Below are positions 4,942-36,925 of a DNA stretch of 64,000 nucleotides, piece after piece. Origin of the DNA: Terriglobia bacterium (GTDB lineage: Bacteria > Acidobacteriota > Terriglobia > 20CM-2-55-15); NCBI GenBank assembly GCA_965198225.1, contig CBDAOY010000008.1, positions 800,001-864,000 of the forward strand. The letters run 5' to 3'. Numbering within the stretch: position 1 is the stretch's first letter; the number at the start of each line of letters is the position of its first letter. Under the pieces are notes generated by a model, which worked only from the letters and a program-made list of their open reading frames with translations, had not been told where the DNA came from and ran no database searches. The translations under genes were made by a program, and so were the position numbers.

Positions 4942-7496
4942 GGATCCGTTTTACAGCTCTGGGAGAAGGACCGGACCGCTGCCTCAACGACGGCCGTCAT
5001 CTCCACATAGTCGTCGCCCACGACATCAATAGCCCGCCCGAACTGCAACCGGAGGTGCCCGGATCGTGGCCAGGAGTCGTGAAGGGAAAGGATGTCGAAC
5101 ATGCCCTCAATGTAAGTGGGGACAACCGGTACCCGAAGTCGGAGAGCCATCAGTCCCACTCCGGGGCGGAACGGTTGGAGGCGGCCATCGGGTGTGCGCT
5201 TTCCCTCCGGGAAGAGAAGGGGGCAATAACCCCTTTCTACGAGTTCTCCCGTGTAGCGGAGCGTATCGCGCACCTGTCCCAGATCCTGCGAAAGGGGATA
5301 GGCGTTGATCAGGGAGCAGGCCAGGTAGTATTGAACGTGCATGGACAACGTCTGGAATCGGCCCTGCTGGCCTGCGGGGGGGAAGAAGTGTTCTTGACGC
5401 ATCGCAGGAGCCAGGCGTCTTCTCCAGTGACCGGGCAACGCGGCGAGGATAGCCACTGTGTCGAGGTGACTGGTGTGATTTGCGGCGAAGATGACCGGTC
5501 CGTCCAGGTCCGCCAGGTTGTCGAGACCGTCGACTCGCAAGGTGATGTAGTGGTTGAACAGGGGTAGGATCAAGAGTCTCCGCACGGCGCTGCGCGGAAG
5601 CGCGACCATCCGTGATCGGGCCCAGCGCGGCCCTTCGATTCGTGAGCGACCAGCAGCTGGTCCGCTTGACGGCGGTAGGGAAGCAGTAGTGCCTTGGGGG
5701 GTGGTTGGGCGTTTGGCCCGCTCCACCCAGGCCGTCAGGTCGTCGATCGTCGAGAGCCTCGAGAACTCCATCTCGTCCAACTCGAGACCGTATCGTTCTT
5801 CGATCCAGGCCAGGAGGTCGATCCTTTCCAGCGACGACAGGCCCAGATCTTCCGCCAGCCGCCCTCGGCCCGAGACGTCTCTCATTGATCGACCAGTGAC
5901 ATGCTGGAGGTAGTCGTCGAGCCCGGCGTCCTGGGCCGCGACCTGGCGATCGGAGGACGAGGCGGACAGCCGCTCGCCGACTTTCCGGCGTTGAATTTTC
6001 AGCGTTGATGAGGTGCGCGGAAAGTCTTCGTCGGGCCAGATCGACCACCGTTGGACCCTCTGGTGCGCTTCGAGCCGGCTATTGACGCGGTCCACCAGAG
6101 ACCCCGGCTCCGTGTCTGGATCGGACAGAATGAGAACGGCGTGAATCTTCTCGCTGCCTGCCTCAACGACGGGCAGGACGACGCAGTCGCGGACAGCGGC
6201 CTCCTGCCTGATCGAGGCCTCGACGTCTTCCGGGTAGACGTTCATGCCGTCCGGGGTCACGATAACGTCCTTCTTGCGCCCCTTGTAGACGAGCCGGCCT
6301 TCGTTGTCCAATTCCCCGAGGTCCCCTGTGTGGAGCCAGCCCTGCGCGTCGGCGACGGGTGTGGTCGAAGAACCGCTCTCCAGGTACTCGCTGACAACAC
6401 TGCGGCCCCGAACCAGAATCTCTCCGTCCTCGTCGATCCGGACTTCCTGGCTTCCGATCACCTTGCCGAGCGTGCCCCGTCGGGCATGGAAGGGATGGTT
6501 GACCGACACGACGGGGCTGGTCTCGGTCAGGCCGTATCCCTGCACGACCAGGAAACCGACCCTCGACCAAAATGCTTCGGTCTCGGCAGCCAACGCCGCC
6601 CCGCCCACGACGAAGGACCAGAATTTCATACCGAATTCGCGGTGCACCGACCGGTGGCGCCACCAGCGGCGCGCGACGCCGACCGGCCCCGCGGGCTTTG
6701 TCCGTGTGCTCGGGTGACGTCGCTCGAGGTCCGCCCTCAGGCTGTCGAGAATCCGCGGGACACAGACCAGGACCGAGACGCGTTCTCGACGTATCGCGCG
6801 CCGAATCGCCGCTGGGTGAAGGCCATTCACGAACACGGTTGCCCCACCTAGCAGCACGGGGATAAAAACACCCATGGATTGTCCGAACATGTGGCTCAGA
6901 GGCAACAGGTTCAGGAAGCGAATGGGCTGGAAGGGCTGTGCCCATGTCCTGTAGCGATCAATTTCGACCCGGATCGGATTCAGATTGGCGCATATGTTCC
7001 GGTGTCGGTGGACGACTCCCTTGGGCTCGGCGGTCGTGCCCGAGGTGTAGATGATCTCCACGATGTCGTCCCCGGTGACCGTTGTCGGATCGAATGAAGA
7101 GACCTCGGGAAGCTGGTTCACATGATCCAGGACGATCTGCTCTGTCGGGAGAGCGAGCTGTTTCTCCCGGTCATGCACCAGGAGCCCGGCATCAGCCTGG
7201 GCGAGAATTCTGGACACGAATTCCGGTGAGGAACCGGGGTCGAGCGGAACGACCTGAACGCCGCGTGCGAGGCAGGCCCAGAAGACTGCGACCCATTCCG
7301 GACAGGCTTGAGCCCAGAGCAGAACGCGATCTCCTTTGCCAATCCCCCTGGAGTCGAGGTGGGAGACGACCCCCGTTATTCGACTTTGAAGGTCGCGATA
7401 GGACCATTTCCACGTCCGGAATCCGTTCGAGAAGCGGAAGGCTTCGCGAGCGCCCAGAGACGCGATGCGGGGCAGGAGATCCAGCAGCGTTTCCAT
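4938..7496 (-). CDS. Long-chain acyl-CoA ligase / acyl carrier / PlsC acyltransferase tri-domain protein
   Basis: YTSGTT, GYGLTE and TGDLG (AMP-binding). DLGLSSL (phosphopantetheine site). NHTSHLD and FPEGKR (acyltransferase). Confidence 0.9.
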
Positions 7497-7530
7497 GGTT
7501 CACACAGCCGATCGTCTGAGGAATAAATCC

Positions 7531-7559
7531 TTGACCTCGAATTCATCCTACCTTACAAA
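7531..7559 (+). promoter_or_regulatory. Candidate sigma70-type promoter for amt
   Basis: TTGACC-17 nt-TACAAA just upstream of the structured leader. The -10 is imperfect. Confidence 0.35.
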
Positions 7560-7624
7560 GAAGATACGGGCACAACGGCGTCCCCGAGGCGGGAATTCTC
7601 CGAGCGAGAAGCGTTCGCGCCGCC

Positions 7625-7690
7625 GACAACGAAGTCAAACGAGACAAAGGCGTCCAATGGTGAGGATACCCCTCTTCATTGGACTTTTTT
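7625..7690 (+). promoter_or_regulatory. ANTAR-target dual hairpin overlapping an intrinsic terminator (attenuator) in the amt leader
   Basis: GAC-AACGAA-GTC, a 6-nt linker, then GAC-AAAGGC-GTC (hexaloops with A1/G4). The last GTC begins the terminator stem GTCCAATG...CATTGGAC, followed by T6. Confidence 0.85.
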
Positions 7691-7715
7691 GTGCCATCAA
7701 GGAGATGTCGTTCTT

Positions 7716-9113
7716 ATGAAACTCAGGACCCTGTCGGTCGCGAGTATTATTCCGTTGCTCTTCGGGCCAGCCGCCGCCGCGGCGGCGCCGCAAGAAGCCG
7801 CATCTGTAGCTGTGAACTCCGGGGATACAGCCTGGATCATGGTTTGCTCCGCCCTCGTACTGCTCATGACGATTCCGGGCCTGGCGCTTTTCTACGGCGG
7901 CCTGGTCCACACGAAAAACGTTCTGGCCACTTTGATGCAGAGCTTCATCATTGCAGCACTCATCAGCGTTCAGTGGGTTGTGATTGGCTACAGTCTGGCC
8001 TTCTCTCCGGGTGCACTCATCGGTGGGTTGGATTGGATCGGGCTCCAGGGTGTCGGTCTGGAACCCGGGATGTATTCCGACACGATTCCGCACCAGGCCT
8101 TCATGGTGTTCCAGTTGATGTTTGCCATCATCACCCCGGCACTGATGACCGGAGCCTTTGCCGAGCGGATGAAGTTCAGCACGTTCCTGGTGTTCACGCT
8201 CCTCTGGGCAACCTTCATTTACGACCCCTTGGCTCACTGGGTCTGGGGCTCGGGCGGATGGCTTGGCGAGCTGGGAGCGCTGGATTTTGCCGGCGGAACC
8301 GTCGTGCACATCAGTTCGGGCATCTCCGCGCTTGTCGCTGCGCTCATGATCGGACGCCGGATCAATTACGGTCACATGACACCGCCCCACAACCTTCCGT
8401 TCACCGTGCTCGGTGCATCGCTCCTGTGGGTTGGCTGGTTCGGCTTCAACGCCGGATCATCGCTTGCGGCGGATGGCCTGGCGGTCAGCGCTTTTGTCGT
8501 GACCAACACCGCGGGTGCGTCCGGTGTGCTGGGGTGGATGGGCGCGGAGTGGTTCACCAAGGGGAAGCCGACTATGCTGGGCGCCGCGACCGGTGCGGTT
8601 GCGGGCCTGGTGGCGATCACTCCCGCGGCGGGCTTCGTCGGGCCGGTGTCGGCCATCGCGATCGGTTTCATCGCGGGCAAGCTGTGCTACTGGGCCTGCG
8701 AGCTGAAAGCCCGACTCGGTTATGACGACGCGCTCGACGTCGTGGGCGTCCATGGCGTCGGCGGAGTGTGGGGCGCCCTGGCGACCGGTGTGTTCGCATC
8801 GACTGCCGTGAACCCGGATGGCGCAAATGGACTGCTCTACGGAAATCCCGGTCTGGTATGGACCCAGTTCATCGCCGTCGTCGCCACGGTGGCCTTCGCT
8901 GGAATCGGAACCTTCCTGATCCTCAGCTTGCTGAAGGTCGTGATGGGGCTGCGTGTCACTGCCGAGGAGGAGCAACTGGGCCTGGACATGAGCCAGCACA
9001 GCGAGAATGCCTACGCGTTCGAACCGACCGGGTATGGGGAATCAGCGCCGGAGTGGGCCCTGGAGGAAACGGGGAAGGGTGTGCCCGCGGAGGGATCGGT
9101 GTTGGAGTCGTAG
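7716..9113 (+). CDS. amtB: Ammonium transporter
   Basis: FQLMFAIIT, DFAGGTVVH, WFGFNAGS and DDALDVVGVHG motifs. Start taken at MKLRT after GGAG. Confidence 0.96.
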   Translation: MKLRTLSVASIIPLLFGPAAAAAAPQEAASVAVNSGDTAWIMVCSALVLLMTIPGLALFYGGLVHTKNVLATLMQSFIIAALISVQWVVIGYSLAFSPGALIGGLDWIGLQGVGLEPGMYSDTIPHQAFMVFQLMFAIITPALMTGAFAERMKFSTFLVFTLLWATFIYDPLAHWVWGSGGWLGELGALDFAGGTVVHISSGISALVAALMIGRRINYGHMTPPHNLPFTVLGASLLWVGWFGFNAGSSLAADGLAVSAFVVTNTAGASGVLGWMGAEWFTKGKPTMLGAATGAVAGLVAITPAAGFVGPVSAIAIGFIAGKLCYWACELKARLGYDDALDVVGVHGVGGVWGALATGVFASTAVNPDGANGLLYGNPGLVWTQFIAVVATVAFAGIGTFLILSLLKVVMGLRVTAEEEQLGLDMSQHSENAYAFEPTGYGESAPEWALEETGKGVPAEGSVLES

Positions 9114-35050: not shown

Positions 35051-35102
35051 GTTGCGCGGCTTCTCGGAAAATGCGATGCTGCGTGTTTCGCGAGACCACC
35101 TG

Positions 35103-36347
35103 ATGCCAGCCAAGAACTCCATCGTCAGCATCCGTAAGACCCTCGATCTGGCGGGACAGGAATTGAAGATCCTGCACCAGATCAGTCACTCGATCAGCTG
35201 CAGCCTGGATCTCGACAAGGTATTGAAGGAGATCATCGAGCTCGTAGTCGATGTCACGAAGTGTGACTCCTGCTTGCTCTATCTACTCGACGAAAACGAA
35301 CCTTACCTGTTCCTGAGGGCATCCAAGAACCCCCACCCGCGACTGATCGGGAGGATATCGGTCAAAGTCGGCGAAGGGATAACCGGATGGGTGGCCGAGA
35401 ACGCCGAACTGGTGGCGATTTCGAAGAATGCGAGCAAGGATCCTCGATTTCGAGTCTTCAGCAACCTGCCAGAGGACCGTTACGAGTCTTTTCTGTCGGC
35501 ACCCATCATTGCTCCGACCGAACGTGTCACCGGAGTCATCAACGTTCAGCACCGAAAATCGCACCGTCATTCTGAGAAAGAGAAGACGCTGATCTCGATC
35601 ATCGGACACCAGGTGGGTGGGGCGATCGAGAACGCCCGACTGTACGAGGAAACGAAACGGCAGACGCAACAGCTCTCGACACTGTCGCGGGTCAGCCAGC
35701 TCGCCGCGTCAGGGAAGTACTTGGACGAGATGCTGCAACTGATCGCGAACCTGACTGCTGAAACGATGCAGGCACGTCTCTGTTCGATCATGCTGGTGGA
35801 CAAGAAAAAGAATGAGCTCATCCTGAAGGCTGCCCAGTGCTCGAGTGAGGAATACTGGCAGCGTCCGAACCTGAAGATCGGAAAGAGCCTCGTCAGCAGG
35901 GTGGTCAAGGCGGGCAAACCGCTGATGGTCAAAGATGTCACGAAGGAAGCCGGCTACCGGTATCCGGAGCTGGCGAAGAAGGAAGGCGTTCGTTCGCTTC
36001 TTTCGGTACCGATGATCGCCAAGGACACGGTCATCGGGGTGATTAACGTCTATTCGGGCGAAGCGAAAGTTTTCTCTGAAGACGACTTGCGGGTGCTCAC
36101 TACGGTGTGCGACCAGGCCGCCCTGGCCATCGAGAACACCCAGTTAGCGGTCGCGATCCAGGAAAGGGAGGAGGCGCTCGCAGCCCGAAAAATCGTCGAC
36201 CGCGCTAAGAGCATCCTGCAACGCCAATTGGAGCTTTCAGAGGATGAGGCCTACCGGCGACTGCGCCAGCAGAGTATGAAGACACGTCGGACGATGCGGG
36301 AGATCGCCGAAGCGGTCATTCTTTCCAGTGAGATGCAGTCACCTTGA
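35103..36347 (+). CDS. GAF-GAF-ANTAR RNA-binding antiterminator
   Basis: Two GAF repeats followed by the ANTAR motif RKIVDRAKSILQ..LSEDEAYRRLRQQSMKTRRTMREIAEAVI. Start position approximate. Confidence 0.92.
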   Translation: MPAKNSIVSIRKTLDLAGQELKILHQISHSISCSLDLDKVLKEIIELVVDVTKCDSCLLYLLDENEPYLFLRASKNPHPRLIGRISVKVGEGITGWVAENAELVAISKNASKDPRFRVFSNLPEDRYESFLSAPIIAPTERVTGVINVQHRKSHRHSEKEKTLISIIGHQVGGAIENARLYEETKRQTQQLSTLSRVSQLAASGKYLDEMLQLIANLTAETMQARLCSIMLVDKKKNELILKAAQCSSEEYWQRPNLKIGKSLVSRVVKAGKPLMVKDVTKEAGYRYPELAKKEGVRSLLSVPMIAKDTVIGVINVYSGEAKVFSEDDLRVLTTVCDQAALAIENTQLAVAIQEREEALAARKIVDRAKSILQRQLELSEDEAYRRLRQQSMKTRRTMREIAEAVILSSEMQSP

Positions 36348-36644
36348 TTCGGGTCGAGCCGGCGCCGAAGCGCCCACCAGGCTCTGAAGCTCTTCCTCGT
36401 AGTACTTGCGGTAGAGGATGTCCCACTCCTCGCCGCCTTCGGGAATGGTTTTCGTCTGGGATTCAATCTTCAGCCGCGCCGCCTGGTACATCTCCGACTC
36501 TTTCTTGAGCCACTTGTTGAGGACCTCCAGTGCAACCAGGCGAATCGTGTTCCGGTCTTCGTAGAACGTGACCTCATCGATTTCCGCCAGCGTATCTGCG
36601 ACACGGTGAGATAGAAGGTTGATCTTGTCCCTGGAGAGCCGCAT
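36339..36644 (-). CDS. DUF507 family protein
   Basis: MRLSRDKINLLS...IPEGGEEWDILYRKYYEEEL pattern. Confidence 0.78.
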   Translation of the reverse strand: MRLSRDKINLLSHRVADTLAEIDEVTFYEDRNTIRLVALEVLNKWLKKESEMYQAARLKIESQTKTIPEGGEEWDILYRKYYEEELQSLVGASAPARPESR

Positions 36645-36646
36645 GA

Positions 36647-36925
36647 CTACAAGACCAGTTTCCGCTCGCGAACGAGCTTTTTCTTGATCAGCTTGAACAT
36701 TTCCTGGTAGGACGCACCGCTCTCGCGCATCTGGTTCGAGTATTCGCTAAGAAGCACGCGGACCTCGTCGTTCAGACGGTCTTCGAGAGTCACCTCTTCC
36801 TGCAGGGCGTCAAAAATGGAATCGGTCAGGGAAAAGTCGTCGGCCACCTCGATCACGCCGCGATCGAGGAGCTCATCGGTGACCTTTTCGGCAAGCAGGT
36901 TGACGAATTCAGTTCGGAGTGCCAT
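36647..36925 (-). CDS. DUF507 family protein
   Basis: EDRLNDEVR.LL...YQEMFKLIKKKLVRERKLVL pattern. Confidence 0.8.
   Translation of the reverse strand: MALRTEFVNLLAEKVTDELLDRGVIEVADDFSLTDSIFDALQEEVTLEDRLNDEVRVLLSEYSNQMRESGASYQEMFKLIKKKLVRERKLVL

Follow-up and report, generated by a model that had tools for sequence, protein, structure and literature searches.

What does a GAF-GAF-ANTAR protein that lacks a receiver domain sense, and on which RNAs does it act? The question is raised by a gene at positions 35103..36347 (+ strand) of a 64,000-nucleotide (nt) stretch of a Terriglobia bacterium genome (assembly GCA_965198225.1, contig CBDAOY010000008.1), the whole of which we call the window. An initial annotation, made from the letters alone, had cast the protein as a one-component nitrogen sensor acting on the leader of the ammonium transporter gene amt, about 27 kilobases (kb) away. 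The pairing with that leader is well supported by comparison, which brings together the anatomy of the target, the co-occurrence of protein and motif within a bacterial family, and the nitrogen operons that follow the motif. The view of amt as the single target gave way, with a second putative target lying before a porin-urtABCDE operon. Taken together, the protein is probably a receiver-less antiterminator that overrides the terminators of the amt and urt leaders. That it acts on both leaders is, from sequence, likely; beyond this, we lean towards an input that reports nitrogen status.

The open reading frame (ORF) listed for the regulator spans 35052..36347 (+) and begins at a TTG. The ATG at 35103 yields a protein of 414 amino acids, and orthologues are 413–417 residues long with the N-terminus MP(R/A)KNS. 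With the ATG start, length and N-terminus agree with the closest homologues. In line with the first description of the gene, Pfam identifies two GAF domains (GAF_2, E 2.1e-42; GAF, 6e-36; GAF_3, 1.6e-31, each in two stretches) followed by a C-terminal ANTAR domain, and neither a receiver (Response_reg) nor any other output domain at E values up to 0.01. GAF1 (residues ~18–179; 35154..35639, +) is delimited by phmmer matches in the PDB, NCBIfam and Foldseek, and GAF2 (residues ~207–344; 35721..36134, +) by the best Pfam stretch, 207–344, and a match to TIGR01817; the two are 26% identical. The RNA-binding ANTAR domain (PF03861; residues 356–406; 36168..36320, +) reaches 63.6 bits, where the cut-off is 27.3, and covers positions 4–54 of the 54-position profile. 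Pfam, the genome search, phmmer matches to PDB 6wsh, 1s8n and 4akk, and the predicted helices all place it there. An AlphaFold2 model (mean predicted local distance difference test 80.1; predicted template modeling score, pTM, 0.51) runs from GAF1 through a long helix (158–203) to GAF2, a second long helix (326–376) and short ANTAR helices (380–394 and 398–412). With no receiver, the protein is unlike the two-component receiver-ANTAR regulators EutV, GnfR, NasT and PdtaR.

ANTAR targets are described as a pair of hairpins whose six-base loops (hexaloops) conserve an A as first base and a G as fourth (A1 and G4), the second hairpin competing with a terminator; linkers in eut leaders are 5–12 nt (PMC3369931, PMC8934654). 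The leader of amt reads as such a target. The amt coding sequence (7716..9113, +; ORF frame, PF00909 at 435 bits) lies 27.4 kb upstream of the regulator gene, starts at ATG 7716 behind AAGGAG (7700–7705), and has no adjoining glnK. Ahead of it stand hairpin P1, GAC-AACGAA-GUC (7625..7636, +), and hairpin P2, GAC-AAAGGC-GUC (7643..7654, +), both seen in the sequence, in the genome scans and with a strict pattern, and separated by 6 nt. An intrinsic terminator follows (7652..7690, +; RNAfold), with its stem at 7652–7684 and six T at 7685–7690. The GUC at 7652–7654 serves twice, as the 3′ arm of P2 and as the first three bases of the terminator stem. The terminator folds at −19.5 kcal/mol (z −5.06), a stability that 0 of 200 shuffles reached, and it is present in the minimum free energy (MFE) fold of the whole leader. 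A further hexaloop hairpin, H0 (7568..7585, +), reads GGGCAC-AACGGC-GUCCCC with one C·C mismatch and folds at −7.2 kcal/mol, no different from shuffles; the amt leaders of relatives begin with equivalents of H0, GGUAC-AAYGGY-GUACC. All three hexaloops of the leader (AACGGC, AACGAA, AAAGGC) have this A1 and G4. Judged by its letters, the amt leader thus has the dual hexaloops, the A1 and G4, the short linker and the terminator-exclusive P2 of the published targets.

Transcription of amt may start from a candidate sigma-70-like promoter, TTGACC-17 nt-TACAAA (7531..7559, +), read from the sequence and matched by a regular expression; this stretch is also kept in the related genomes G001–G003. A simple promoter/terminator scan flagged neither this candidate nor the leader terminator, but RNAfold does show the latter. 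No sigma-54-like −24/−12 element was found in the 340 nt upstream of amt, even with up to 3 substitutions. An Rfam search around the leader (7000–8000, E up to 10) returned 3 chance-level matches, none of them related. Separately, contigs from three metatranscriptome runs, which belong to one study and are labelled sponge metagenome, are identical to parts of the amt coding sequence (8180–8438, 8288–8448 and 8475–8660), with the leader outside them. These contigs establish presence in RNA libraries only, not amt transcription, termination or level.

How many ANTAR proteins and how many such leaders does the organism have? Its own genome (G000: 6,408,377 bases, 9 contigs, 97% complete) contains exactly one ANTAR match, the regulator gene itself, which answers the earlier concern that other ANTAR proteins might sit elsewhere. 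When the genome was scanned for pairs of A..G.. hexaloop hairpins overlapped by a terminator, 25 loose matches came up, 3 of them clean modules. One module is the amt leader and the other two form a tandem pair at G000:C5:856280-856420 (L002 2280-2420), the first module at 856280-856343 and the second at 856353-856420. Looser searches added little: a relaxed genome scan for P2 plus terminator gave 42 matches, none further convincing. The two-hairpin pattern without a terminator gave 44 matches against 24 in reversed or complemented sequence, and GACANNGNNGTC by itself gave 504 against ~250 expected; neither is informative alone. The tandem pair comprises two complete hexaloop-pair/terminator modules in series, with P1–P2 linkers of 9 and 7 nt, behind TTGACC-17-TATAAC and before the porin-urtABCDE operon. 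The genes of that operon specify a porin-like protein (weak ExtI-porin match), UrtA (568 bits with TIGR03407, whose cut-off is 492.75), a pair of permeases and a pair of ATPases; upstream of the tandem modules is a UreD gene. Because clean modules occur only at these leaders, the candidate regulon in the organism's own genome consists of amt and the urea ABC (ATP-binding cassette) transporter.

The surroundings of the regulator gene hold no such target, as had been observed at the outset. Its neighbors encode a thioesterase, a HAD hydrolase, two DUF507 proteins and an SDF-family symporter (Pfam), and the genome-wide scans placed no hairpin-terminator module near the gene or these neighbors. 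The two DUF507 genes (window 36339-36925, − strand) are convergent with the regulator gene, the first overlapping its final 9 bases. In nearly every same-family locus examined, the DUF507 pair comes after the regulator, often with the SDF symporter next in line.

Binding to RNA, the ligand and the sense of control are inferred, and we would picture the switch as follows. A dimeric regulator, its GAF pair in a nitrogen-poor state, would capture the A..G.. hexaloops of the nascent leader, at 7568-7690 for amt and at G000:C5:856280-856420 for porin-urtABCDE. With P2 held closed, the 5′ arm of the terminator would be withheld and RNA polymerase would read into the uptake genes, inducing ammonium and urea scavenging under nitrogen scarcity. 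The serial modules may make the urt operon depend more steeply on the regulator. The GAF pair would read the signal, for which we would first think of a small metabolite that reflects nitrogen status, glutamine or 2-oxoglutarate for instance.

We then turn to relatives, writing f1 for the family of the source genome. A first set of 40 genomes comprised the organism's own, 23 from f1 and 16 from other families; a second consisted of 200 genomes sampled evenly across the class, 28 from f1 and 172 from outside it. Full-length orthologues, 68–85% identical, occur in 22 of the 23 f1 genomes, the miss being G019, which is 68% complete. ANTAR matches number one per genome in 17 of these and two in 5, the second being a paralogue of 43–46% identity and the same build; every ANTAR gene found in f1 belongs to the regulator family or to this paralogue. 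Orthologues in family f3 are 57% identical. Motifs were sought with explicit patterns and scripts rather than a covariance model, as three MAFFT alignments misregistered P1. The strict pattern was ACANNGNNGT, 2–30 nt, GACANNGNNGTC, 18–45 nt and TTTTT.

Protein and motif travel together to a large degree. In the 40-genome set, the strict pattern occurs in 19 genomes, namely the organism's own and 18 of the 23 from f1, and in 0 of 16 from other families (reversed control, 0 of 40). In the 200-genome sample, it occurs in 23 of 28 f1 genomes as against 6 of 172 others (reversed control, 1 genome), which bears out the expected co-occurrence at the level of the family. ANTAR genes as such occur in 113 of the 200 genomes, and all 28 f1 genomes carry the type described here. 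Four of the six matches outside f1 fall in ANTAR-bearing genomes, and a convincing overlapping terminator is seen only in G163 (f3); the two in genomes lacking ANTAR look like chance. Relaxed patterns applied to five non-f1 genomes with ANTAR genes gave 2 unconvincing matches. A general scan of 25 amt loci likewise placed modules at f1 loci only.

The genes behind the motif are mostly those of nitrogen acquisition. Across the 19 genomes there are 26 distinct sites, and 21 precede Amt, P-II, GlnA or UrtA operons: Amt directly in 12, porin-like-Amt-P-II in 4, P-II in 1, GlnA in 1 and porin-like-UrtA in 3. The other genes are a porin-like ORF (1), a CitMHS_2 transporter (1) and unclear cases (3; G012, G013 and G009). 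Among 25 distinct sequences, P1 pairs past the 2 base pairs (bp) that the pattern demands in 24, with differing stem sequences, and its stem reaches at least 4 bp in 19 and at least 5 bp in 14. P2 is nearly always GAC/GUC, and loop 2 favors A at position 2 (18 of 25) and position 5 (21 of 25). Linkers measure 1–11 nt in 24 sites and 24 nt in the remaining one. The regulator gene of G014 adjoins amt in convergent orientation (G014:C61:4928-7657; L022, L051), with the amt leader module on the far side.

Several observations weigh against the proposed regulator-leader pairing and its reach. Regulator and targets are unlinked in the organism's own genome. The 3-bp stems of P1 and P2 are not MFE structures on their own, and their energies are no different from those of shuffles; such weak stems fit a protein-stabilized antiterminator, but the structural case draws on conservation, not energy. 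The patterns fixed A1 and G4, so neither counts as independently conserved in relatives, and related genomes are non-independent samples. Five of the 26 sites precede other or unclear genes, including transposases (G012) and a leucyl-tRNA synthetase gene 0.5 kb away (G013). In each of the two sets, five f1 genomes (of 28 in the larger) have the protein and no strict match, and f3, with its 57% orthologues, mostly lacks the pattern (3 of 29, of which only G163 looks real). Among f1 genomes with no strict match, G007 shows a form with a long linker, the P2 loop of G011 is a variant, and G016, G020, G022 and G147 yielded nothing with the patterns used. G001 keeps the protein and the amt promoter stretch, and its amt leader has no module (L024, G001:C189). 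Conversely, G019 has the motif before Amt with no ANTAR match. This is the sole instance of the pattern that the initial annotation had named as damaging, a motif kept without the protein, and at 68% completeness, a missing part of the genome accounts for it no less well than loss. Lastly, the glnA-glnB leader of the organism's own genome contains no hairpin-terminator module, and therefore another nitrogen regulator must exist.

Some of these genomes merit a word of their own. G001, a relative from the same genus, has its only strict site before a porin-Amt-P-II operon at another place in its genome (G001:C4:3658). In G012 the orthologue is divided between two frames, with residues 1–83 and 78–414 (G012:C7:526629-527881), and behind the sole motif site of that genome (G012:C8:561825-565000; L114) come genes for transposase and integrase; decay of both regulator and target is one possible cause, an assembly error another. 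Upstream of glnA-glnB in the organism's own genome, a unit of ~40 nt, GCGGCCGTAGCGAACTCCAGATGAGGGACCCCGCTCTTTG, stands as a direct repeat in two copies (G000:C7, ~696700-696900).

What, then, might the GAF pair sense? The top three phmmer matches of the regulator in the PDB all span residues 18–179: 3ci6, the GAF domain of Acinetobacter PtsP (E 1.4e-21); 3e0y, a Geobacter 'conserved domain protein' (1.4e-21); and 3trc, the GAF domain of Coxiella PtsP (7.4e-17). The fourth match reaches only 2.3e-11. The best NCBIfam model is PtsP (NF008283, E 2.5e-37), residues 23–190 aligning to profile positions 4–169 of 748; its whole-protein score of 128.5 bits, against a cut-off of 583, reflects a match confined to the GAF part. 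The regulator has no phosphoenolpyruvate-utilizing enzyme I domains and is not itself a PtsP/EI-Ntr. In Foldseek comparisons, 3trc and 3ci6 once more come out as the best single-GAF folds (TMt 0.86 and 0.84; root-mean-square deviation 2.3–2.4 Å). GAF1 thus resembles the PtsP/EI-Ntr GAF, its best solved and best curated match, in hidden Markov model and fold comparisons alike, as had first been judged by eye.

The likeness is real but non-exclusive, and this too counts against a PtsP-like input, with multi-GAF kinases about as similar. At 25–37% identity, such kinases dominate GAF1 searches among longer proteins and against 1.84 billion representatives; swamped by multi-GAF proteins, these searches could neither rank PtsP nor count the family. 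The architecture of the regulator recurs only in P0310 and P0333 among the 150 matches listed. Many orthologues are labelled by JGI as 'signal transduction protein with GAF and PtsI domain'. The organism's own enzyme I homologue (G000:C5:229052-230755) matches only positions 168–737 of the PtsP profile, hence has no GAF, and the best PtsP-GAF-like stretches genome-wide, GAF1 at 68 bits and GAF2 at 60 bits, are both on the ANTAR protein. Work by Lee et al. in 2013 reportedly concerned glutamine as well as alpha-ketoglutarate in Escherichia coli. Glutamine binding by the EI-Ntr GAF is reported in PMC4848567, along with a Caulobacter mutation in that GAF, L83Q, that makes it insensitive to glutamine; carrying the ligand over to GAF1 would be reasoning by analogy. 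Direct binding of glutamine, 2-oxoglutarate or both as the regulator's input is, in our judgment, a tentative and somewhat doubtful proposal.

The input could instead be a protein. The same antitermination at the amt and urt leaders might be governed by P-II (GlnB, modified by GlnD) acting on the GAF pair in place of a metabolite, an arrangement that we rate as rather improbable. The second NCBIfam match of the regulator is the NifA N-terminus (TIGR01817, 5e-26), in which GAF2 and the following helix (residues 189–409) align to profile positions 2–216, and an interaction between the NifA GAF and GlnB is reported (PMC3854208). The organism's own genome carries GlnD and one P-II, located behind glnA, and many of the regulated operons of relatives include a P-II gene. 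The NifA match, however, is far under its cut-off (91.6 against 528.85 bits), leaves the central AAA+ sigma-54 activator domain and the helix-turn-helix unmatched, and could be generic GAF likeness. A predicted complex of P-II with the GAF pair received a score of 0.00 and a mark of 0.32, which is evidence neither way. The NtrBC independence suggested by the initial annotation stays a conjecture beside GlnD, the one P-II and 20 NtrC-like matches in the genome, none of which exceeds the NtrC cut-off.

A non-nitrogen input is, to our minds, improbable. Here the regulator would act on the same leaders, its GAFs sensing a cyclic nucleotide, cyclic di-GMP, redox state or another metabolite, and the nitrogen link would come from the target genes alone. 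GAF domains bind many ligands (PMC3369931), and the ANTAR regulator NasT binds cyclic di-GMP (PMC10783516). The model has the layout of tandem GAFs of the PDE/CyaB2 type, two predicted GAF folds joined by a long helix, and its top fold matches are tandem GAFs: PDE5A (3lfv, E 2.7e-18, TMq 0.58) and CyaB2 (1ykd, 4.6e-17). PDE5, PDE2 and CyaB2, at the head of the fold matches, bind cyclic nucleotides, and by bit score the nearest relatives of GAF1 are multi-GAF kinases of unknown ligand. Against this, the best single-GAF and best curated matches are to PtsP, and nitrogen status is the simplest driver for a regulon of ammonium, urea, P-II and glutamine synthetase (GS) genes. Very improbable is a third account, in which the leader hairpins and terminators are plain attenuators or another factor's targets and the regulator has other RNA targets, such as the translational kind reported from actinobacteria: unlinked genes, thermodynamically weak mini-hairpins, no Rfam family at the leader, and reported ANTAR targets that overlap start sites (10.1101/660928) would suit it, but the genome has no second ANTAR gene, the leader agrees with the published target in each feature tested, and the module is confined to the family with this protein type, with a reversed control near zero.

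The preferred reading, antitermination at the amt and urt leaders under a nitrogen-related input, has several relatives among known systems. In Geobacter sulfurreducens, the ANTAR protein GnfR likewise relieves premature termination in the leaders of nif, glnK and amtB (Ueki and Lovley 2010, PMC2995071), and its RNA binding was demonstrated at a conserved sequence overlapping the terminator (PMC2995071). Unlike the regulator described here, GnfR is a receiver-ANTAR protein, activated by the kinase GnfK under a sigma-54 cascade (PMC2995071); here two GAFs replace the receiver and the candidate amt promoter is sigma-70-like. NasR of Klebsiella oxytoca is, like our protein, a one-component regulator with a ligand-sensing domain joined by helices to ANTAR and a nitrogen-assimilation leader as its target, but its sensor is a NIT domain for nitrate and nitrite and its gene lies beside the target (PMC7496416, PMC12591593), whereas here the sensor is a GAF pair and the amt and urt targets are unlinked. 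EutV of Enterococcus faecalis, the target-defining system, shares the hexaloops, the short linker and the competition between P2 and terminator; it differs as a receiver-ANTAR protein that answers to ethanolamine and controls eut genes (PMC3369931, PMC8934654).

Nitrogen regulons of ANTAR proteins are already in print. The definition of the dual hairpin is due to Ramesh et al. (2012), who report covariance matches in diverse bacteria ahead of genes for ammonium and urea transporters, P-II and GS (PMC3369931). Their regulons resemble ours in the overlap of P2 and terminator, the nitrogen genes downstream and the several modules in some leaders (PMC3369931). The regulators noted beside those matches are ANTAR response regulators, unlike here, and come mainly from Desulfotomaculum and clostridial genomes (PMC3369931). 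In their table the acidobacterium Solibacter usitatus has 0 matches, and the authors state that no GAF- or PAS-ANTAR protein was characterized at that time (PMC3369931). An account from 2020 names NasR and PAL as the two characterized one-component ANTAR proteins (PMC7496416), and a 2025 review, in its available portions, mentions GAF solely as an ANTAR architecture (PMC12591593). We found no characterized GAF-ANTAR regulator in the literature, where no search was aimed at proving that and subscription papers may hold one. The type of switch is known and the GAF-GAF sensor version unstudied.

One-component GAF-ANTAR proteins form a large class, with no characterized member in the available portions of PMC3369931 (2012), PMC7496416 (2020) and PMC12591593 (2025). 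The system described here offers a compact pair for this class: one protein of 414 amino acids, a leader of ~120 nt, a second leader with two serial modules, and a short list of candidate ligands. Should glutamine or 2-oxoglutarate prove to be what the GAFs bind, biosensors that read nitrogen at the RNA level would gain a simple component in this protein. To specialists, a familiar sort of switch that carries an unstudied sensor and controls a family-wide regulon for nitrogen uptake would come as no surprise. The boldest form of the idea, that one protein, through direct binding of glutamine, 2-oxoglutarate or both by its GAF pair, turns nitrogen status into an RNA-level decision on ammonium and urea scavenging across the family, with no kinase, P-II or sigma-54 activator, strikes us as unlikely. 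At the level of the organism, the finding indicates how ammonium and urea uptake may be controlled in an abundant, uncultured acidobacterial family, and it bears on nitrogen cycling in the habitats of that family.

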